This document shows, piece by piece, positions 1,015 to 9,403 of a DNA stretch of 9,403 bases. Below the pieces are notes generated by a model. The model saw nothing but the letters and a program-made list of their open reading frames with translations, was not told the DNA's origin and searched no databases. Positions within the stretch are counted from its first letter, which is position 1. Each line of letters opens with the position of its first letter. The DNA comes from a virus (lineage: Duplodnaviria > Heunggongvirae > Uroviricota > Caudoviricetes): the IMG/VR virus record IMGVR_UViG_2531839146_000012; one strand, 5' to 3'. The position numbers and the translations under genes are program-made.

Positions 1015-1566
1015 ATGCGCAGGTCTGCATTTGTGAGGATGATGATTTTTACAACGTTGTTTGTAGGGGGAACTTCTACCGCAGTTGCTAAAAACTGCAA
1101 AAAAGGAATACCTTGTGGTAACTCGTGTATAGCTGTTGGTAAGACGTGCCGGATTGGCTCTTATGCCCCTTCATCTTATAAAAATCATTCATACTCTTAT
1201 CCTTCATCCTCTATTCGAAGCTCGCAATCAAATAATTCACGAAAAACTGAAGGAGTGAAAACGACTCCTGCTGCCAAAAATTATCTTTGCCAATACTCTA
1301 TTGCATCAATCGAAAACGGACGTTTAGGGGCATTACGTGTTCAGGGATACGCACAAGTAACTTTATATGCAGATAGCTTCAAGGCTAACAGATTAAATGG
1401 AACATATTTGATATCGCCAAAACTGAATGCTAACGGCAAGTTTATGATGGCAGATGATAAAAGCAAGGTTTATGCTTATGATTCTTGGCTATTAAATTTT
1501 GCAATAAGCGATCGTATCACAAGAACGACAGAACAATGGGATCGATGTAAGCTCAATCAAAAATAA
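1015..1566 (+). CDS. Secreted cysteine-rich hypothetical protein (183 aa) with Sec-type signal peptide
   Basis: GGAGG-containing RBS (1005-1010) before ATG 1015. N-terminus MRRSAFVRMMIFTTLFVGGTSTAVA looks like a signal peptide (basic n-region, hydrophobic core, AVA cleavage motif), followed by a 4-Cys cluster CKKGIPCGNSCIAVGKTC, a Ser/Tyr-rich linker and a C-terminal domain with two more Cys. Confidence 0.75.
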   Translation: MRRSAFVRMMIFTTLFVGGTSTAVAKNCKKGIPCGNSCIAVGKTCRIGSYAPSSYKNHSYSYPSSSIRSSQSNNSRKTEGVKTTPAAKNYLCQYSIASIENGRLGALRVQGYAQVTLYADSFKANRLNGTYLISPKLNANGKFMMADDKSKVYAYDSWLLNFAISDRITRTTEQWDRCKLNQK

Positions 1567-1584
1567 CAGTTAGAGAAGCTCTTG

Positions 1585-1641
1585 TAGAGGCATTATTGAG
1601 TTATTGGTTTTAATATTTTTGTGCCTCTATGGGCTTTTTTT
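1585..1641 (+). terminator. Putative terminator region after the secreted-protein gene
   Basis: TAGAGGCA (1585-1592) pairs with TGCCTCTA (1622-1629), followed by GGGC and a 7-T run (1635-1641). The loop is long, so the structure is non-canonical. Confidence 0.35.
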
Positions 1642-1798
1642 GCCTTTTTGCAAAGTAGGAGAGAGCACAGGAATCGTTAAAATTAATTATTGGGGTATTT
1701 AAGGTTATTTTCAGGTGGTTTAAGGGTATTAAACTTGATTTAATTGATTAAAATATAAACAGATAGTCCTGTATCTTATTGATTTATAAGGTTATTTT

Positions 1799-1855
1799 TA
1801 AATAAAGGTAAATAAAAAATAAATAGCCATAAATAGCTATAAATACATCTAAATA
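1799..1855. repeat. Six TAAATA motifs at 10-11 bp (helical) phasing
   Basis: TAAATA starts at 1799, 1809, 1820, 1830, 1840 and 1850. Confidence 0.6.
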
Positions 1856-2275
1856 CCTTTATCCCTTCCCTTATGGCTAGATTGCGAGAAGTGCTTAACG
1901 CGATTTTCAGCGCCCCCCGATCTGGAAAATCCAGAATCCCCAAATATCAGCAAGGAATTTTCTTGCGTAATCAACATCGTTTTTACCTATTAAATCATCA
2001 CACAGAAAGCCTTTCTGTAATGTCTCTCACTAAACTTTCACTAAACACGAGAATGATCGGTTTTATGTCGGATCAGATGCTAGAAACAGCACCACGTCTC
2101 ACAAGGGCTGTAAGCGATGAAACCAGTGTTTATGCGGGTGCAGGTCAAAATATGGGCCAAAATCCATTTAACATAATAATCGTAATATGCACTAAGGAAC
2201 ACATAGAACGCCTTGAATTGATGTATCAGGGGAAAAGTGATGGATTTTTTACGTAGGAGCACGAGAGGGCTTCTG

Positions 2276-2303
2276 TTGACTTTTGTGTGCTATGAAATAT
2301 AAT
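2276..2303 (+). promoter_or_regulatory. Putative sigma70 promoter firing into the repeat region
   Basis: -35 TTGACT (2276-2281), 16-bp spacer, -10 TATAAT (2298-2303). No ORF follows. Confidence 0.4.
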
Positions 2304-2337
2304 TAAAGGTTTTTTGTTTTTATCGTGTGATGTAGTG

Positions 2338-2780
2338 GATTACACAGGGGGATAGATTAAATGGTGTTCTGTTTATACAGGTTTATTTGTTAGATCAACA
2401 ATTTGGCATTTCTAAACAGATGTTTGAACGTTGCCAAATGTATTGACAACACAAGAAAAGGGCTTGCTATGCCACGCATTACACGGAATAAGGCTGTAAA
2501 AACAAAATAAATTTTAAAATTTGCACAAACGAGAAAACTCGTTCAGAAACAAGCAGAACAATTTTTAGCCAACAATTTCTGATGGTGCTCTGTAAACCGC
2601 ATTACACAAGGCTTTGCGAAAGTGATGTAAAAGTGAAGAAAGCTAACATTGCACTTTGAAGCCATTTTTCATTGGATTTTTTAGTAGGGAATTACACAGG
2701 GAATAGAGAGCATTATTCTATGATTTACACAGGGAATATAGGGGATTATGGCACACACATAGAAAGGCATTACACAGAGT
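2338..2780 (+). repeat. Dispersed direct repeats of G(C/G)ATTACAC(A/G)GG (iteron-like), six copies
   Basis: ATTACAC cores at 2339, 2478, 2601, 2691, 2769 and a TTTACAC variant at 2724, each preceded by G(G/C/A) and followed by (A/G)(G/A)G. Confidence 0.6.
2401..2439. promoter_or_regulatory. Nested imperfect palindrome ATTTGGCA...AAACA-GA-TGTTT...TGCCAAAT, operator-like
   Basis: Outer arms 2401-2408 and 2432-2439 are exact reverse complements; an inner palindrome AAACAGATGTTT lies between them. A TTGACA at 2443-2448 follows. Confidence 0.35.
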
Positions 2781-2808
2781 GAGTGCTATGTGATGATTGG
2801 TAGTAACG

Positions 2809-2843
2809 GTAGGTCACTGTGAGCTACCCCCACAGAATTCTGT
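2809..2843. repeat. Isolated copy of the 22-bp repeat core (GGTAGGTCACTGTGAGCTA) followed by CCCCC and a perfect 12-bp palindrome ACAGAATTCTGT
   Basis: 2809-2827 matches the tandem unit at 3028-3135; the palindrome at 2832-2843 is flanked by TACCCC on both sides. Confidence 0.5.
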
Positions 2844-2883
2844 TACCCCTATCAAGTCTGATACCCGATAAGTATAAATAACA

Positions 2884-2981
2884 CCTAGGAAATGATTTCC
2901 GATCTATTTAGGAAGTAACCTAGGAAGTGGTTTCCTACCTACTTAGGAAATGAGTTCCTACCTACCTAGGAAATGAGTTCC
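2884..2981. repeat. Four CCTAGG-GGAAAT-G-A(T/G)TTCC palindromic sites, the last three at 23-bp pitch
   Basis: GGAAATGATTTCC at 2888-2900 is a perfect odd-length palindrome; GGAAGTGGTTTCC at 2923-2935; GGAAATGAGTTCC at 2946-2958 and 2969-2981. Confidence 0.6.
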
Positions 2982-3006
2982 ACCAATACTATAATTAAAT
3001 AATATA

Positions 3007-3022
3007 AATAATATTCTTTATA
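3007..3022. repeat. Exact 16-bp direct repeat AATAATATTCTTTATA, left copy; right copy at 3184-3199
   Basis: Identical 16-mers at 3007-3022 and 3184-3199 bracket the 22-bp tandem array and its AT-rich flank; both continue with similar (C)TATAT sequence. Confidence 0.55.
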
Positions 3023-3027
3023 CTATA

Positions 3028-3135
3028 TAGCTCACTGTGAACTAGGGGGGGTAGTTCACTATGAGCTAGGGGGTAGGTCATAGTGAGCTAGGGGGTAGGT
3101 CATAGTGAGCTAGGGGGTAGGTCACTGTGAACTAC
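3028..3135. repeat. Five tandem 22-bp repeats (unit about TAGGTCATAGTGAGCTAGGGGG), each with a palindromic TCAC-N-GTGA core
   Basis: Units start near 3028, 3050, 3074, 3096 and 3118 with 22-bp period; the first unit is in inverted orientation (AGCTCACTGTGAACTAG). Followed by an AT-rich stretch with (TA)6 at about 3203-3214. Confidence 0.65.
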
Positions 3136-3324
3136 AATAAGACTATTAATAAAACTATATTAGATTATTAATTAGATCATAATAATAATATTCTTTATAT
3201 CTATATATATATATGATCTTTTGCCTTCCGGCGTTAGCTTCACTCTCTGGCAAGCAGCCTTACTCCGCTACCTTTCGGGCTTCGTGGCTGGCCCGTTCCG
3301 CTCACACCGAAAGCAAAGCGTTAC

Positions 3325-3366
3325 TTTCTTCGTGTAACTATCGTGGCGGTAACGCCCACGAAGAAA
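3325..3366 (+). other. Stable hairpin with GNRA-type tetraloop (GGCG-GTAA-CGCC) nested in a 9-bp outer stem
   Basis: TTTCTTCGTG (3325-3334) pairs with CACGAAGAAA (3357-3366); inner GGCGGTAACGCC at 3345-3356. Sits in a locally GC-richer segment (about 3216-3420). Confidence 0.35.
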
Positions 3367-3600
3367 TACTATTGCGCTGTGCGCAGTAAGAGTAATCACC
3401 TAACCAATCATACTGATTGCTTATGTGTTAACTCTCTCTACTCTTAATTACCCTCCTACATATAATAACTCTGTTATTCTCTGTAGTTGTGTAATTACTC
3501 GAAGAGAGAGCGGCTAAAGCTCAATTACACTCTGCTTTCCTCGTGTAATTTCACTAAGCCTCAATACAATTCCACTTCCTACTTCTGTAGTCGTGTAATT
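3330..3600 (-). repeat. Inverted copies of the ATTACAC motif (CGTGTAAT) plus a 20-bp direct repeat CT(C/T)CTGTAGT(T/C)GTGTAATT
   Basis: GTGTAAT at 3489-3495, 3543-3549 and 3593-3599; GTGTAAC variant at 3333-3339; one direct ATTACAC at 3524-3530. The 20-mers at 3479-3498 and 3582-3600 are near-identical. Confidence 0.5.
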
Positions 3601-3640
3601 GTTTTCGGTGGAAAAGCCAGAGGCGACACCGAAAGAGAAT

Positions 3641-3710
3641 TCTGATCTTATTAATCTTATCTATCTTAGTTAATCTTCTTACTTATCTTACTTTATCTAC
3701 TTTATTATTA
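3641..3710. repeat. Pyrimidine-rich cluster of TTATCT / ATCTT motifs (AGATAA on the minus strand)
   Basis: TTATCT at 3657-3662, 3683-3688 and 3693-3698, plus several ATCT variants. Confidence 0.4.
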
Positions 3711-4220
3711 ATAATAGCTTTATAAGCTCTCTGACGCAAGAAACAGCATTCAGGAAGGGAATCACCTTAGAAAAGGTGTTCTTTGCGTCATAATGTGTTT
3801 TATGAGGGATTCAGAGGTGTTTCATAACAGGAATGTATAGAGGATACTTTAGGTAATTAAAAATAAGGGGTCTAAATGCTTCTCTAACAGCATTAAGCAG
3901 GGTAGGGAATGGAAACGCATTGCCTACACATATAGGCTCACTACAGAGCTTTACAGAGCGTTTTATAAAGTGACTCTCTATCTTATATCTACCATCACCT
4001 TTTCATATACCTAACAAATACAAAATAAGCCCCTTAAATAAGCCTCTGGCGAGCTAAACAGCCATTAGATAAGGGAATGTATTGCTTTTATCAAAATCTC
4101 GTTAGAACGCGTTTTAGAGCGTTTTAGACAATAATGAAGAATAGCACTACACAGAAGAGCACGAATAGCTAAGAAAAAATGTAAGTACATGAAAAAGATC
4201 AGATTTTTTGTGAAAAGGTA

Positions 4221-4249
4221 TTGACAAATGTTTCTTTATATGTAATAAT
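4221..4249 (+). promoter_or_regulatory. Putative sigma70 promoter of the early operon
   Basis: -35 TTGACA (4221-4226), 17-bp spacer, extended -10 TGtAATAAT (4241-4249). It lies about 110 nt upstream of the first gene. Confidence 0.5.
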
Positions 4250-4359
4250 AGGTATTAGAGGGACAGAAAAACATTCTTCTCTAAATAATCAAAATCAATG
4301 CACTTTGAAGCCGTCAGGCTTGCAAGGTGTTTTTCTTTTAACTGAATAAGGAGTTTTTT

Positions 4360-4548
4360 ATGAAATGGTTTACCCCGGAGCACGTCATCTCGGCATTTAA
4401 AAAAGGTGAGCTTACACGCCATCAAGTAGTAATGAATCGTAATATGGCAAGGAGTCGAGGTTATCCAGAGCGAGCAGCTTGCTTCAATGAAGCACTCAAG
4501 ATTATTGATGAATTAAGAAAAAATGAAAAAGAATCTGAAACAGAGTAA
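4360..4548 (+). CDS. Small hypothetical protein (62 aa), first gene of the early operon
   Basis: AAGGAG RBS at 4348-4353, 6-nt spacer, ATG 4360. No family recognised. Confidence 0.6.
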   Translation: MKWFTPEHVISAFKKGELTRHQVVMNRNMARSRGYPERAACFNEALKIIDELRKNEKESETE

Positions 4549-4567
4549 AGAATAGAAGGAGAAAACT

Positions 4568-4735
4568 ATGAGCGAAACCAAGAAACCAATTCCGCGCACT
4601 TACCTACACGTTGACCCTGAAATCTTCAAGGTTTTATTTGCTGAAGCCAAGAAAAGGCAAATTATGGTCAGTGATTTGATGTTAGAAATCATTACTGAAG
4701 CAGCAGAGAACATCAAACAAAAAAAGGGTAAGTGA
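4568..4735 (+). CDS. Ribbon-helix-helix (CopG/Arc/MetJ-like) DNA-binding protein, 55 aa; below the ORF-track cutoff
   Basis: AAGGAG at 4555-4560, ATG 4568, stop TGA 4733-4735. Translation MSETKKPIPRTYLHVDPEIFKVLFAEAKKRQIMVSDLMLEIITEAAENIKQKKGK fits a beta-strand / helix / helix layout typical of RHH proteins. Confidence 0.55.
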   Translation: MSETKKPIPRTYLHVDPEIFKVLFAEAKKRQIMVSDLMLEIITEAAENIKQKKGK

Positions 4736-4786
4736 TCCTCATTCACTTTAGTAGCGCATTAAGCGTGATTTATAAGGAGATTTTTA

Positions 4787-5479
4787 ATGATTAATCAACT
4801 AACTTTTACAAAACACTATGACACGTTTGATAATGTATCAAAGATTTATTCTGATAAATTCCCTCAAGGAAAAGATTTAGATCTATTACATATTGTGCTT
4901 TATTTTCGATTCCTTAGTTATCAGGAAAACAACCTTAATTGTTATGAAAGTCACGAAACATTAGCTAAGATTTTTAAGTCTTCAGCGTCAACAATTAAAC
5001 GTAAGATAAACGATCTTAAAGAGATGGGATTATTAGAAACATCCCCACATCCTGATCCGTATATTTCATCTTTGATTTACAATGCTCTCCCTCTCACAGA
5101 TGCACATATTACTCCCCCAGGAGAATCATCACTCTCTGATCTTTCTGAGGCAGAAGAAGCACAGGAACAACCTAAAGGCCATAAACAGCCTTCTTTTGAT
5201 GTTCTTGATGATGATTGGGATGCGCCTTTACCGTGGGAGACGGAAGAAACACCTGTTTCATCAAGTGAAAAGGTAGCTAATGATAATGAGGAGGATGTGT
5301 TAGAGAATTTTGCCTCTCTTATCATCCGGGAGAAACACAGAAGAACAGGAGGATCATCATTTATAGACTTTGCAAATTCACTGGCTTATAGACACGGGCT
5401 AAAACGACCAAATGGTATTGAGGCATATTTTGCTAAGAAACATCCCAAAGTATATGAAGACTTTGATATTCCATTTTAA
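4787..5479 (+). CDS. Winged-HTH protein (HTH_36 / replisome-organizer-like N-domain), acidic linker, C-terminus ending EDFDIPF
   Basis: AAGGAG at 4774-4779, ATG 4787. The N-terminal ...CYESHETLAKIFKSSASTIKRKINDLKEMGLLE matches the usual winged-HTH pattern of phage/plasmid replication organizers. An acidic low-complexity linker (DDDWDAPLPWETEE...) follows; the last residues are YEDFDIPF, stop 5477-5479. Confidence 0.8.
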   Translation: MINQLTFTKHYDTFDNVSKIYSDKFPQGKDLDLLHIVLYFRFLSYQENNLNCYESHETLAKIFKSSASTIKRKINDLKEMGLLETSPHPDPYISSLIYNALPLTDAHITPPGESSLSDLSEAEEAQEQPKGHKQPSFDVLDDDWDAPLPWETEETPVSSSEKVANDNEEDVLENFASLIIREKHRRTGGSSFIDFANSLAYRHGLKRPNGIEAYFAKKHPKVYEDFDIPF

Positions 5480-5490
5480 TAAGGAGGGTT

Positions 5491-5769
5491 ATGATTCAAT
5501 ATTTAGTAAAAAATCAAGTAGACAGAATTCAGTGTAATGACACAGGAAAACGCATCTATGAAACACTTGCTTACCTCTATAAAGGAAAGCCAACACCGCT
5601 AAAATATAGCGATGTGTTACATCGAGCAGGGTGCTCTGAAGATGGTTTAAAATTCTGGCTGAAACAGCTATCAAATTTCGGTGTTATTGAGATTAAAGAA
5701 TTATCTTTCTCTACATTCAATCTCAAAAGACTAAATAGAGAAATAGACTTCATCTATTCCACTCTCTAA
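5491..5769 (+). CDS. Small hypothetical protein (92 aa), possible winged-HTH
   Basis: AAGGAGGG RBS at 5481-5488, ATG 5491; tightly packed after the previous gene. Confidence 0.7.
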   Translation: MIQYLVKNQVDRIQCNDTGKRIYETLAYLYKGKPTPLKYSDVLHRAGCSEDGLKFWLKQLSNFGVIEIKELSFSTFNLKRLNREIDFIYSTL

Positions 5770-5898
5770 AATCTCTCTATGTAATTAAAATATAAAAGGA
5801 AAACATTATTATGATAGTAGCTATGTATTGGTTATTGTTCTTTCTCACGTTAGAAACATATTTCGGGGTGTTTTCCTTTAAAAGAAAAGGAAAAGTAA

Positions 5899-6309
5899 AT
5901 GGCAAAAAGAAAAAACAACGTTGTTAAGAAGATCGGTGATTCAGCTTCTCTTCTAAGTAAACCTAAATCTATTCTAAGACGTAAAGACTTTAAAGAGCTA
6001 GTTACGCTCTCCAAGCAAAATAGCGCCCCTGGCGAATGGAAAACAGAGATCATAGAACATTCTCCCTCTGTGCCTTGTGGAGATGAATTTAACGCCTTAC
6101 AAGAAATCTTATCTTCAACACCTGGCGTATTCTGGAAACCTAGAAAAAGAAAAGAGTATATTGTTGATAGCTCTGATTTACGCAAATACCAGATTTTAGG
6201 ATTTGAAGACTACAACCACTACGTCGGTTATCTCGCCACAAATGGCCTAAATAATTTAGTTCCTGAATTCCAAATTTTAGATAATGCAGATCACTATGGA
6301 GACTTTTAA
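5899..6309 (+). CDS. Hypothetical protein (136 aa) with Lys/Arg-rich N-terminus, ending ...HYGDF
   Basis: Purine-rich RBS (AAAGGAAAAG) before ATG 5899. N-terminus MAKRKNNVVKKIGDSASLLSKPKSILRRKDFKEL. Confidence 0.65.
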   Translation: MAKRKNNVVKKIGDSASLLSKPKSILRRKDFKELVTLSKQNSAPGEWKTEIIEHSPSVPCGDEFNALQEILSSTPGVFWKPRKRKEYIVDSSDLRKYQILGFEDYNHYVGYLATNGLNNLVPEFQILDNADHYGDF

Positions 6310-6310
6310 T

Positions 6311-6649
6311 ATGAACAAAAACACGTATGACACAATTTACTCACTAATTAATTATTATGAGGATGATTACCTCCTGCCTTTAAACCGCGCTGAACTTGAA
6401 GCATACAAAGAAAACACGCCAGCGGCACTAAATGAGGCGTTTAAACACTGGGATTTAGCTGTGAATGCCTTTGAGCACCTCTCTAAGCGTGTAGAGATGC
6501 TCTGTAAGCGTGAGAACGCATATCTAACAGCGGATCAGCTATTTGAGCTATCAAACTGGATAGAAGGTATTGAATCGGACGTTCGCTATGTGGGAGATGG
6601 CCTTGTCGAACTAGCTCAACGCTTAGGCGCTACTATCACAGAAGAATAA
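6311..6649 (+). CDS. Acidic hypothetical protein (112 aa)
   Basis: GGAG at 6298-6301 then ATG 6311. The track start at 6284 would overlap the upstream gene and lacks an RBS. About 21 Asp/Glu versus 10 Lys/Arg by count. Confidence 0.7.
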   Translation: MNKNTYDTIYSLINYYEDDYLLPLNRAELEAYKENTPAALNEAFKHWDLAVNAFEHLSKRVEMLCKRENAYLTADQLFELSNWIEGIESDVRYVGDGLVELAQRLGATITEE

Positions 6650-6678
6650 AAAAAGCAACAAAAAAGTTGTAAAATATC

Positions 6679-6707
6679 TTGACATTTCATATATTGTATG
6701 TTAATAT
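6679..6707 (+). promoter_or_regulatory. Strong sigma70-like promoter ahead of the late genes
   Basis: -35 TTGACA (6679-6684), 17-bp spacer, -10 TAATAT (6702-6707). Confidence 0.6.
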
Positions 6708-6714
6708 AATTATA

Positions 6715-6932
6715 TAGGGTGATTATTTTTCCTTTATTGGTTCGATATTAAAAATTCTTCTTGTCGTTAAAGGGGAGTAAAATCTCCGCTCCCCGCTTCT
6801 CCTCCTTAAGTAATACTGTGTCATTATTACCTCTTTCCTTTGTTATGCATACATCTTGGAGTGTGCATAACATAGGGTAATTACATAGGTACAAGTTAAT
6901 AAAAGGCGGCTTTAAATGCTGCCTTTTATTTT
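6715..6932 (+). ncRNA. Candidate roughly 220-nt leader / small RNA from the promoter to the intrinsic terminator; no ORF
   Basis: Promoter at 6679-6707 and terminator at 6901-6932 with no ORF over 11 codons between them. Alternative hairpins GGGGAG...CTCC...CTCCCC (6772-6794) and a 9-bp stem TGTTATGCA / TGCATAACA (6841-6849 / 6865-6873). Confidence 0.35.
6901..6932 (+). terminator. Rho-independent terminator
   Basis: Stem AAGGCGGC (6903-6910) / GCTGCCTT (6918-6925, one G-U pair), loop TTTAAAT, then TTATTTT. Confidence 0.6.
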
Positions 6933-6994
6933 GCCCGTTATGCAACTTAAAAGTTGTATTTCTTACTTTAAACAAGGTAACAAGGTTTATATAA

Positions 6995-7207
6995 ATGTTG
7001 TTCTTAAATGATAAAGAGCAAATCATCAAGTATCGCGATGAAATGCTAAAGATCAATCCACAAATTACCGAAATGGTAGCTAAATACGCTGGGTGTTCTG
7101 TCGAGGAAGTAGAAAGATGTGTTGAAAAATATTTTTCTCCTTCTTCTCCGTCTACACCTTCCCTTAATGAATTAATCAAATTAAAAGCTAAGGAGATTAC
7201 TAAATGA
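6995..7207 (+). CDS. Small hypothetical protein (70 aa), first late gene
   Basis: ATG 6995 with a weak AAGG RBS; its stop overlaps the next start (ATGA at 7204-7207), suggesting translational coupling. Confidence 0.5.
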   Translation: MLFLNDKEQIIKYRDEMLKINPQITEMVAKYAGCSVEEVERCVEKYFSPSSPSTPSLNELIKLKAKEITK

Positions 7208-7566
7208 TTATTGATTTAGACACTCTGTTTCCAGTTCGAAAGACTTTCACAGATATTGTAAGTTATTGTACTGATCCGTTTGCCTCTGTAGAAAGCAAGG
7301 TTTTTGCTTCTCTTCCTGCTGATGTTGAGTGCGGAGACTTGATCACCAGCACTGGCGCTAAATATGAATCAGGAGATGATATCTATGTTGTTATGAGTGA
7401 ATTTGTAACGGCTGGAGCAAACAAGCCTGTAGATGTGCTACGTAGCAATGCTGGGCTTGTATGCATCAAAGCTGATGCCCTGAATGCTGTAAGTGAAGCA
7501 GCAAAAGCAGCATTAATTAAAAAAGGCTTTCAGCTTGAAGGGTTCCATTCTGTTTTCACTTCTTAA
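7204..7566 (+). CDS. Hypothetical protein (120 aa) immediately upstream of the capsid homolog; possible head accessory (decoration or scaffold-like), unproven
   Basis: AAGGAG at 7191-7196, ATG 7204. The accessory-protein role is suggested by position only. Confidence 0.7.
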   Translation: MIIDLDTLFPVRKTFTDIVSYCTDPFASVESKVFASLPADVECGDLITSTGAKYESGDDIYVVMSEFVTAGANKPVDVLRSNAGLVCIKADALNAVSEAAKAALIKKGFQLEGFHSVFTS

Positions 7567-7584
7567 TAAAAGGAATAATAATAA

Positions 7585-8613
7585 ATGATTCTAGGTAATG
7601 ATTACGTTGATTTAGCTCCTCTGTTCTCTGCGCATAGCACTAGAAATTATCTGCTTTCTACTCTTGATTTTACGGATTCTGTAGGGGTTACATCTCATAA
7701 AGTGGCTGTTAGCCAACTGGTGGAAACTAACGAATCTCTGTTCAACAAAGAAACCTCTCGTTTCTCTTCTGAACATAACGTGACTAAGCGTGAACAAGGT
7801 AAAGAATATCTGATTGAAATCCCGTACTTTTTAAGGGAAGACCTGATCAAACCGCAGGACGTGCAAGGCAAACGTAAACCTGGCACTGATTTTCAGGAAA
7901 CACTCACTGATATTTATGCTGACTATGTTGCTAAACACAATGTTGCATTCCAGCGTACAAAAGAGAGCGTGTTGGCGGCTTCTTTGTTCTCTGGCAAAAC
8001 TTACACGCCTAAAACTGATGATGTTCTTATCGAATGGGGCAAGCTGTTTAACGTATCAGCTATGAAAGCCACTGTGAACGCTTCCAGCACTGACACCACG
8101 AAGATTTTTAAAGAATTTGATCAGATTGCTACTGACATTATCGAGAAAGCACAAAGCCAGGCGGCTGCTGTAGAGCGTATTGTTGTTTTCTGTAAGCCGG
8201 AAGCCTTCTCTGCAATTCGATTCTCTGCTGGTATGGCAAACGCATTCCAGTATGTAAGCCCACTGGAAGAGGGGAACGTTGTGTATCAGCGTCGTGACCT
8301 GCTGCCAGGGGTGACAGCGTTCACTATTCCAGGAACTAACATTGATGTTATTAAACTGGTAGATCCGCTACACCTGGCACATATGACCGCAGACGCTGTA
8401 GCGATTCCGAAGTTTGCTAAAGGCTCTAACGTATATCAGAACATCTACGGGGCTGCTTCCAGCACTTTTGAACTGATTAATGCCGATCCTACTGAGGTCT
8501 ATAGCTACAGCTATGAATCTTCTCGTGGTGATGCTGTGAACGTTGTTACAGAGAATAGCCAGATGGTTGTTAACCACGGTGTAGGCTTCTCCGTTCAAAT
8601 CACTGTTAAATAA
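7585..8613 (+). CDS. Putative phage major capsid protein, T7 gp10-like (342 aa)
   Basis: AAAAGGA RBS, ATG 7585. By eye, the segment AVERIVVFCKPEAFSAIRFSAGMANAFQYVSPLEEGNV aligns with T7 gp10 ...ADRVFYCDPDSYSAILAALMPNAANYAALIDPEKGSI (shared R, C-x-P, SAI, M-x-NA-x-x-Y, P-x-E-x-G) at a similar position in a protein of near-identical length (342 vs 345 aa; T7 sequence from memory). Followed by a strong terminator. Confidence 0.6.
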   Translation: MILGNDYVDLAPLFSAHSTRNYLLSTLDFTDSVGVTSHKVAVSQLVETNESLFNKETSRFSSEHNVTKREQGKEYLIEIPYFLREDLIKPQDVQGKRKPGTDFQETLTDIYADYVAKHNVAFQRTKESVLAASLFSGKTYTPKTDDVLIEWGKLFNVSAMKATVNASSTDTTKIFKEFDQIATDIIEKAQSQAAAVERIVVFCKPEAFSAIRFSAGMANAFQYVSPLEEGNVVYQRRDLLPGVTAFTIPGTNIDVIKLVDPLHLAHMTADAVAIPKFAKGSNVYQNIYGAASSTFELINADPTEVYSYSYESSRGDAVNVVTENSQMVVNHGVGFSVQITVK

Positions 8614-8630
8614 TATTTAACGTGTAATAG

Positions 8631-9183: not shown

Positions 9184-9403
9184 TGACTCCAACTTATTGA
9201 TAGTGTTTTATGTTCAGATAATGCCCGATGACTTTGTCATGCAGCTCCACCGATTTTGAGAACGACAGCGACTTCCGTCCCAGCCGTGCCAGGTGCTGCC
9301 TCAGATTCAGGTTATGCCGCTCAATTCGCTGCGTATATCGCTTGCTGATTACGTGCAGCTTTCCCTTCAGGCGGGATTCATACAGCGGCCAGCCATCCGT
9401 CAT
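9179..9403 (-). mobile_element. IS1 right end (partial; continues beyond the window)
   Basis: 9179 onward reads GGTAATGACTCCAACTTATTGATAGTGTTTTATGTTCAG..., the reverse complement of the canonical IS1 right terminus including the GGTAATGACTCCAACTTATTGAT inverted repeat. Confidence 0.9.
9194..9403 (-). CDS. insB: IS1 transposase InsB, C-terminal fragment
   Basis: Track [72 protein letters not shown] is the recognisable C-terminus of IS1 InsB; stop at 9196-9194. Confidence 0.9.

Follow-up and report, generated by a model that had tools for sequence, protein, structure and literature searches.

The origin of replication of phage lambda is composed of four to five dyad-symmetric iterons of about 20 bp, beyond which come an AT-rich block and a palindromic region, in that order, and its O initiator combines a specificity-determining N-terminal DNA-binding domain with a separate C-terminal domain. 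The same plan is seen in a 9,403-nucleotide stretch of Caudoviricetes DNA (IMG/VR record IMGVR_UViG_2531839146_000012; the whole stretch is referred to here as the window), which covers most of a genomic island. In it two oppositely oriented clusters of a short word, TTRCAC, flank a region that, judged by its sequence, is a lambda-like origin: iterons with dyad symmetry stand in tandem beside an AT-rich block, and the initiator that goes with them is a helix-turn-helix (HTH) protein, all of which are characteristics of lambda-type iteron origins. Unlike lambda, the origin is located in a 2.7-kb non-coding region and not within the initiator gene, and two iteron-plus-AT modules are arranged in tandem; lambda, in turn, is not flanked by arrays of another short, oriented word.

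In the satellite phage P4 type I iterons (TGTTCACC) are bound by the alpha protein, and ori and crr are cis-acting for replication. P4 resembles the island in being a satellite with two separated, opposed clusters of a short asymmetric word of 7-8 bp. In P4, however, the initiator itself uses the word and has no other set of iterons, whereas the island initiator reads tandem iterons and the type of initiator has no bearing on the short word; furthermore the island, unlike P4, lacks a primase-helicase gene. At E. coli oriC and P1 oriR, opposed asymmetric DnaA-box sites on the two sides of the origin organize an oriented complex. TTRCAC, by comparison, cannot be aligned to the DnaA box (TTATNCACA) without a gap, and its spacing is irregular and amounts to tens of bp. 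The archaeal origin recognition boxes (ORBs) are inverted asymmetric initiator sites around an AT-rich element, which set the direction of helicase loading; they belong to another domain of life and to other proteins, and the analogy is one of logic only. Finally, pSC101 par and the ssi or primosome hairpins are protein-free, cis-acting, hairpin-forming direct and inverted repeats beside an iteron origin, and the module at 3215-3640 described below, which may have a function of this kind, resembles them. They show no sequence similarity to that module, and unlike the island they have no mirror array across the origin.

In P4 ori/crr, the P1 and F iteron sets, the DnaA arrays of oriC and the archaeal ORBs the word is in every case the initiator's own site. 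What differs here is a second word, which is independent of the exchangeable initiator-iteron cassette and which keeps its polarity across genera. A literature search revealed no description of this motif, of the island family, or of satellites of phi92-like phages.

Enrichment and polarity of the motif

Exact ATTACAC occurs 11 times in the window where 1.36 copies are expected, a number reached in 0/200 shuffles. The copies are found at 2339, 2478, 2601, 2691, 2769 and 3524 on the plus strand, and at 3489, 3543, 3593, 5532 and 8622 on the minus strand. When the tandem iterons are masked it is the top 7-mer of positions 1600-4360, with nine occurrences versus 0.41 expected (Poisson p ~6e-10). 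The distribution is strictly polar on the left, where all 6-8 copies (2339-2775) are on the plus strand, while 3-4 copies on the right (3332-3599) are on the minus strand. The logo derived from 57 distinct sites reads a-TT-R-CAC-r-a with a favoured A six bases downstream, and describes a compact, asymmetric site with informative flanks.

A first-pass annotation of this DNA had listed six direct copies at 2339-2775 and inverted copies at 3489, 3543 and 3593. A search with the 12-mer GSATTACACRGG, allowing up to two mismatches, recovered the former (2337, 2476, 2599, 2689, 2722 and 2767), and the latter proved to be exact ATTACAC on the minus strand. The membership is larger than was listed: additional members are ATTGCAC at 2648, TTTGCAC at 2520, GTTACAC at 3332 (minus), a plus-strand copy at 3524 within the right cluster, and degenerate plus-strand copies at 1997 and 4146. 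The same annotation had pointed to one more copy after the capsid gene. It is present at 8622, but close E. coli relatives alone have kept it, and seven distant relatives lack it; since approximately 1.4 copies are expected by chance, we regard this and the 5532 copy as probably fortuitous. The inner left sites are spaced by 47, 43, 33 and 45 bp in the window, by 47, 43 and 88 bp in a second E. coli lineage, and irregularly in other genera.

Table 1. Motif copies, iterons, hairpin module and initiator gene of the origin region, with outlying copies (positions in the window).
Feature	Position	Strand	Remarks
Left site 1, GGATTACACAGGGG	2337-2350	+	Homology with recombinase-type island variants starts exactly here
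Left site 2, GCATTACACGGAAT	2476-2489	+	
Left site 3, GCATTACACAAGGC	2599-2612	+	ACTACAC in some relatives
Left site, ATTGCAC variant	2648-2654	+	Kept in all lineages; within 16-nt word repeated at 4297
Left site 4, GAATTACACAGGGA	2689-2702	+	Invariant in 19/19 aligned islands, 70-79% identical ones included
Left site 5, GATTTACACAGGGA	2722-2735	+	Local 28-nt duplicate of site 4
Left site 6, GCATTACACAGAGT	2767-2780	+	About 37 bp from first iteron; ATTGCAC in second lineage
Single orphan copies of three iteron types	2808-2866		Inverted B copy, ACAGAATTCTGT type, CCCCTATCAAGTCTGATACC type
Four 23-bp dyad-symmetric "C" iterons, ACCTAGGAAATGAGTTCCTACCT	2883-2981	+	Followed by AT-rich block 2982-3025
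Five 22-bp dyad-symmetric "B" iterons, TAGGTCACTGTGAGCTAGGGGG	3026-3135	+	Followed by AT-rich block 3136-3214
Right module, G+C-richer, hairpin-rich, non-coding	3215-3640		Inverted motif copies in stems
Right site, GTTACAC variant	3332-3338	-	In stem TTCTTCGTG/CACGAAGAA
Right site, ATTACAC	3489-3495	-	3' arm of 38-nt inverted repeat 3432-3510
Palindrome AATTACAC-N12-GTGTAATT	3523-3550		Plus copy 3524 pairs with minus copy 3543
Right site, ATTACAC	3593-3599	-	3' arm of hairpin 3567-3600; direct repeat of 3480-3496 unit
Degenerate copy, GCACTACACAGA	4144-4155	+	About 70 bp upstream of early promoter 4221-4249; membership uncertain
Replication initiator, 230 aa	4787-5479	+	Matches HTH_36 and several phage O-like/replication-initiation PHROGs
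Lone copy after capsid gene	8622-8628	-	Probably chance

Several other elements accompany the left array. The ATTGCAC variant is part of a 16-nt word, A(T/A)TGCACTTTGAAGCC, present at 2648-2663 and again at 4297-4312 in the 5' leader of the early operon, directly after the 4221-4249 promoter; the pair is also retained in the distant island L008, and a complementary copy of the word was not found. Upstream, the palindrome ATCACACAGAAAGCCTTTCTGTAAT at 1997-2021 joins a degenerate plus copy, which reads ATTACAC in most relatives, with a minus copy of the motif, and is situated in an upstream module that also holds a match to phage terminal-repeat edges (see below). A near-consensus sigma-70 promoter (TTGACT-16-TATAAT, 2276-2303) is directed rightward into the left array and the origin, with no open reading frame (ORF) downstream for 2 kb. 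It is found in the window, L001 and L008, and is absent in recombinase-type islands.

Conservation across islands and genera

The members of a second E. coli lineage (L007, L008, L057-L060) are 70-79% identical to the window on the left side and barely alignable on the right. They carry four to five ATT(A/G)CAC on the plus strand to the left of the iterons and one to three ATTGCAC on the minus strand to the right, the strand patterns being ++++/-- or --- (L007, L008, L057, L058 and L060). An unbiased search for polar 7-mers among E. coli islands places ATTACAC or ATTGCAC first. More distant relatives, retrieved via capsid homologues from Citrobacter, Klebsiella, Enterobacter, Dryocola, Cronobacter and one metagenome, show the same synteny and possess their own iterons, and each has merely one to three ATTRCAC. 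In six distant loci TTGCAC ranks first of the 4096 hexamers for the arrangement "plus on the left, minus on the right" (23 concordant versus 5 discordant copies), the next most polar hexamers being TGGCAC, TAGCAC and ATTGCA. Motif discovery on the window and its homologues, which the first-pass annotation had suggested, thus returns ATTACAC as the top 7-mer, and ATTACAC/ATTGCAC or TTGCAC as the most polar word.

The conservation extends to the sites themselves. In an alignment of the left side the columns of the motif core are conserved at 0.96 versus 0.88 for the rest (permutation p=0.03), and a comparison with L007 reveals identity at 32/35 core positions and at 134/181 of the remainder. The oppositely oriented clusters that had been described as flanking the tandem repeats are found in the window, in the second lineage and in distant genera, and this retention of polarity argues for function and fits an oriented DNA-binding factor.

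Iterons and initiator

The origin proper (2808-3214) is a mosaic in which C-type and B-type iteron-plus-AT-block modules stand in tandem, and its two AT-rich blocks have a 31-nt stretch in common (at 2992 and 3169). Other islands contain only one of the B and C iteron sets, or a third type. Comparison of the window initiator with those of L015, L018, L022 and L050 reveals a modular protein, in which the N-terminal ~130 residues are exchanged between islands (30-40% identity or unalignable) and the C-terminal ~100 residues stay 77-96% identical. In a set of 19 islands each iteron type is found with its own version of the initiator's N-terminal half, in three pairs (B, C and ACAGAA-type). The logic is that of lambda O, and this covariation identifies the tandem units as the initiator's sites. 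Only the B type matches the window initiator, so the C set is either an orphan or allows cross-talk with other islands. The arrays follow another rule: the pattern "+++++ left, -+-- right" accompanies each of the three initiator types, and two more besides, and, as the arrays occur with every initiator type, ATTACAC does not belong to the Rep iterons.

A proposed frame of accessory sites

Our preferred, though tentative, explanation is that a sequence-specific factor distinct from the initiator recognizes the TTRCAC words as oriented sites, accessory elements which would frame the lambda-like origin mirror-symmetrically. The retention of the inward arrangement in several enterobacterial genera points to an origin accessory factor, and not to the island initiator, as the probable partner. 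The two arrays point inward at an origin made up of dyad iterons, AT-rich blocks presumed to unwind, and an O-like initiator. A candidate factor bound to the arrays would build a mirror-symmetric nucleoprotein complex around the iterons, most likely in an accessory role, and this complex would assist or regulate bidirectional opening, helicase loading or priming during replication of the satellite. From this pattern we infer that a protein would bind the words, that its identity would differ from that of the initiator, and that it would affect opening, helicase loading, priming or copy control. The left array shows no excess structure, which makes recognition of duplex DNA the simplest reading there; the right sites, lying within inverted repeats, could be read in the duplex or in an extruded form. 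The first-pass proposal of a protein that loops or pairs DNA stands to the extent that an oriented DNA-binding factor fits the data, but the handcuffing, partition and transcriptional variants of it are not supported.

Should a non-initiator factor bind, the island would possess a two-layer origin in which an exchangeable Rep-iteron cassette is held inside a conserved oriented frame. Such an arrangement, if true, would explain how initiators can be swapped freely with continued replication, and would offer a way to study the link between the satellite of a virulent phage and the replisome. The polar word also serves as a simple sequence signature for finding origins in this island family.

A more ambitious version of this idea, which we consider doubtful, has TTRCAC as the family-specific word of an origin-organising factor contributed by the host, by the infecting virulent phage or by a universal protein of the family. 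The arrays and the hairpin module would then constitute an initiator-independent second origin layer that recruits or orients the helper or host replisome; the interchangeable Rep-iteron cassette would supply specificity, and access to the replication machinery would come through the TTRCAC layer.

A number of observations weigh against accessory sites of this kind. Neither copy number nor spacing is maintained: distant genera have one to five copies per side at irregular distances, and the spacings of 33-139 bp are without helical phasing. The right copies are placed in hairpin stems whose sequence drifts between genera, and on this side the word might simply result from the structure. None of the host site types with which the motif was compared fits it. 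As for an island-encoded partner, the binders originally proposed do not hold up. The product of 4787-5479 is the initiator; the ribbon-helix-helix (RHH) protein is absent from L006, L007, L018, L059 and L068, and the 92-residue winged helix-turn-helix (wHTH) protein from L008, L058 and L060, all of which keep oriented copies. The same is true of the 62-residue first early protein, which is absent from L062 and L065. PDB sequence searches with the 62- and 92-residue proteins gave nothing usable, nor did Pfam and NCBIfam scans with these two and the RHH protein. For the universal 136-residue protein, AlphaFold yielded a model too poor for use in searches (predicted local distance difference test score of 60).

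The right-hand hairpin module

The right copies belong to a hairpin-rich module (Table 1) that had escaped the first-pass annotation, with hairpins near 3326-3363, 3373-3385, 3432-3510, 3512-3560, 3567-3600 and 3603-3633. The minus-strand copies form the 3' arms of hairpins, the 5' arms of which are imperfect plus-strand copies (AATTACCC, AATTACAC and AATTCCAC). The 20-bp repeat in which the inverted copies had been noted is real: 3480-3496 and 3584-3600 are 94% identical, and a third relative is found at 3321-3339. The 3523-3550 palindrome sits in a GGCTAAAGCTC...TTCACTAAGCC hairpin that is conserved in Enterobacter and Klebsiella. The module is unchanged beside different iteron types. That it is a protein gene was ruled out by 1-nt indels among close relatives.

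This module gives rise to the main rival explanation, an unlikely one in our estimation, in which the motif has no protein partner and is mere stem sequence of a structured RNA or of single-stranded or extruded DNA, for example a priming or primosome-assembly signal; the left copies would then be pairing partners or decoys for the GTGTAAT arms. Several features of the module speak for it. It folds far better than shuffled sequences in 9/9 loci (z -2 to -9), and usually more strongly on the minus strand (+0.5 versus -3.2 in L063, -3.2 versus -7.2 in L064). It is G+C-richer than its surroundings and detectably homologous in Klebsiella, Enterobacter, Dryocola, Citrobacter and Cronobacter; among 437 E. 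coli genomes with a copy, which is located at several chromosomal sites, 395 have it at 95-99% identity. The stems differ between genera with their complementarity retained (TTCTTCGTG/CACGAAGAA versus TTGTGCAA/TTGCACAA), and the central stem of Enterobacter (ACTTACAC/GTGCAAGT) displays one compensatory change from A-T to C-G, as well as one pair that is G.U on the minus strand only.

The explanation suits the right module. It does not suit the left array, which is unstructured and contains most of the copies, the majority of these having no local partner; the 400 nt beside the iterons on that side show no excess of secondary structure (z ~0 to -2, that of the array itself being ~0). The flank preferences of the sites (A at -1 and +6) are not explained by pairing. 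Moreover, an alignment from seven genera gave a weak RNAalifold consensus, in which the covariation term is unfavourable (+1.16). The E. coli copies are nearly identical to one another. The Rfam 15 covariance models gave no match in 1600-4400 at E<=1, and promoter scans found no conserved promoter reading either strand of the module.

The small hairpin TGCGCTGTGCGCA at 3373-3385 is almost invariant in E. coli, Klebsiella, Enterobacter and Dryocola; its form in Citrobacter and Cronobacter is CGCCGTGTGCG. In the second E. coli lineage, whose right module is otherwise dissimilar, the hairpin is found again (L007, ~4750-4765).

Other explanations

A role at the RNA level appears improbable. Here AUURCAC would be present in RNAs that run into the origin from left and right, either for binding of a regulator or for immunity or antisense pairing in the manner of the P4 CI RNA. 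The 2276-2303 promoter has the necessary direction, the island has no obvious repressor gene, and the first early protein matches an "RNA-binding regulator" model, albeit very weakly (E=0.035; 14 bits versus a cut-off of 100). Against this, the promoter belongs to a swappable upstream module and is missing from the recombinase-type islands that keep the array; the 62-residue protein is missing from some islands as well. There is no conserved leftward promoter to the right of the module, nor are there conserved promoters for convergent transcription into the origin, and the absence of Rfam matches includes the C4/CI family.

We hold it to be similarly improbable that the words are short shared homologies at module boundaries, that is, recombination scars or hot spots that persist by descent and local duplication and have no role of their own. 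The breakpoints of island variants do fall at sites 1 and 4, the ends of a deletion in L006 coincide exactly with sites 5 and 6, the segment between the two 20-bp repeats is missing from L009, and sites 4 and 5 are a 28-nt local duplication. These breakpoints and deletions indicate that the repeats also act as recombination substrates. Descent alone, however, leaves unexplained the strict polarity in lineages with unalignable flanks, the position of TTGCAC as the single most polar hexamer in six other genera, and the higher conservation of the core columns.

Least credible of all is the proposal that the sites are extra binding sites of the island initiator that titrate it or pair origins in the style of P1 incA/incC or P4 ori/crr, the handcuffing of the first-pass annotation: opposed clusters do flank the origin core in P1, F and P4, and the initiator gene is only 1.2 kb downstream, but exchange of the N-terminal wHTH domain goes hand in hand with a change of the 22-24-bp tandem iterons, which the motif does not resemble, while the arrays stay constant.

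Comparison with known binding sites

The motif was compared with established classes of sites. It has no similarity to the 22-24-bp Rep units and is unchanged across initiator types. DnaA-box 9-mers (TTATNCACA; TTWTNCACA) are not enriched in the window (16 versus 27 expected), and only 2723-2731 (ATTTACACA) is within one mismatch of the box (8/9); in the remaining copies position 2 is A and position 1 varies freely, and TTGCAC requires a 2-base gap. In the case of IHF (WATCAANNNNTTR; reverse YAANNNNTTGATW) the logo has an invariant CAC where the IHF site has ATW, the resemblance being limited to TTG and to A-richness at -6/-5.

The word is equally unlike a sigma-70 -35 box: the 57 distinct sites contain no information 15-25 bp downstream and no -10-like signal, and promoter scans located no sigma-70 promoters at motif sites. 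Together with the lack of conserved promoters, this speaks against the transcriptional control that had been suggested earlier. The Ter core is GTTGTAAC within a Ter site of ~21 bp; compared by eye with this consensus, only 3330-3339 (TCGTGTAACT) approaches the core, the remaining copies reading GTGTAAT and the family-wide form being GTGCAA. Sigma-54 promoters, CsrA GGA sites and the H-NS nucleation motif, likewise judged by eye against their consensus sequences, do not fit.

A partition complex had also been considered. No ParA/ParB or ParM/ParR families were detected with Pfam, PHROGs and NCBIfam among the ORFs tested in 1015-8613, and the element appears to be an integrated satellite. The P1 box A word ATTTCAC is one base removed from the motif; no ParB is present. 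Lastly, the word does not appear to derive from the presumed helper, since a complete phi92-like genome (146 kb) contains 28 ATTACAC where 29 are expected, with at most three copies per 1-kb cluster and no strand polarity.

The island and its presumed helper

The window represents most of an island of ~12.5 kb, both ends of which are cut by insertion sequences: positions 1-150 resemble, by eye, the tail of an IS21-family IstB gene, and 9194-9403 lie within an IS1 element (annotated as IS1A in relatives). Intact E. coli relatives adjoin tRNA-Thr/proA or pao genes. At least 80% of the window is present in 119 of 5426 complete E. coli genomes, and sequence similar to 2250-3720 in 751 of them. The gene order was taken from an intact copy (L001, 9001-21500), in which small cargo genes are followed by a 2.6-kb stretch without annotated genes and by the early operon. 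Thereafter come genes for a lambda gpE-type major capsid protein, a long hypothetical protein, a "baseplate" (Dit-like) protein and a tyrosine integrase.

The island family (the window, L001 and L062-L068) is characterized by a swappable initiator, its own gpE-type capsid protein, a protein of ~615 residues, a Dit-like protein and an integrase; terminase and portal are absent from these members. Its members are widespread in E. coli, Klebsiella, Enterobacter, Citrobacter, Cronobacter and Dryocola. A scan of a genome collection with the capsid protein recovered one close relative only. The family itself may be the more novel object.

Window positions 1876-1921 (extending to ~1949) contain a match of 46-78 bp, in reverse orientation, to phi92-like Stephanstirmvirinae, which also occurs in L063 (3775-3816) and L064 (4837-4887). 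Its identity is 93-97% with Escherichia phages and 76-81% with Klebsiella and Citrobacter phages, and the matched place is the right edge of the left direct terminal repeat (phi92 318-363, the repeat being annotated as 1-343). Because of this match the island looks like a phage satellite with a phi92-like virulent helper, and the matched sequence may be a packaging or terminal-repeat cutting signal that mimics that of the helper. BLAST of the whole non-coding region against phi92-like phages gave nothing beyond it.

The cargo slot to the left of the non-coding region (1015-1566) is variable. In the window it encodes a secreted 183-residue protein; comparison with the same position in L005, L007 and L057-L060 shows that elsewhere it is occupied by a serine recombinase gene on the opposite strand, as in many E. 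coli islands, or by a small tyrosine recombinase gene, as in other genera.

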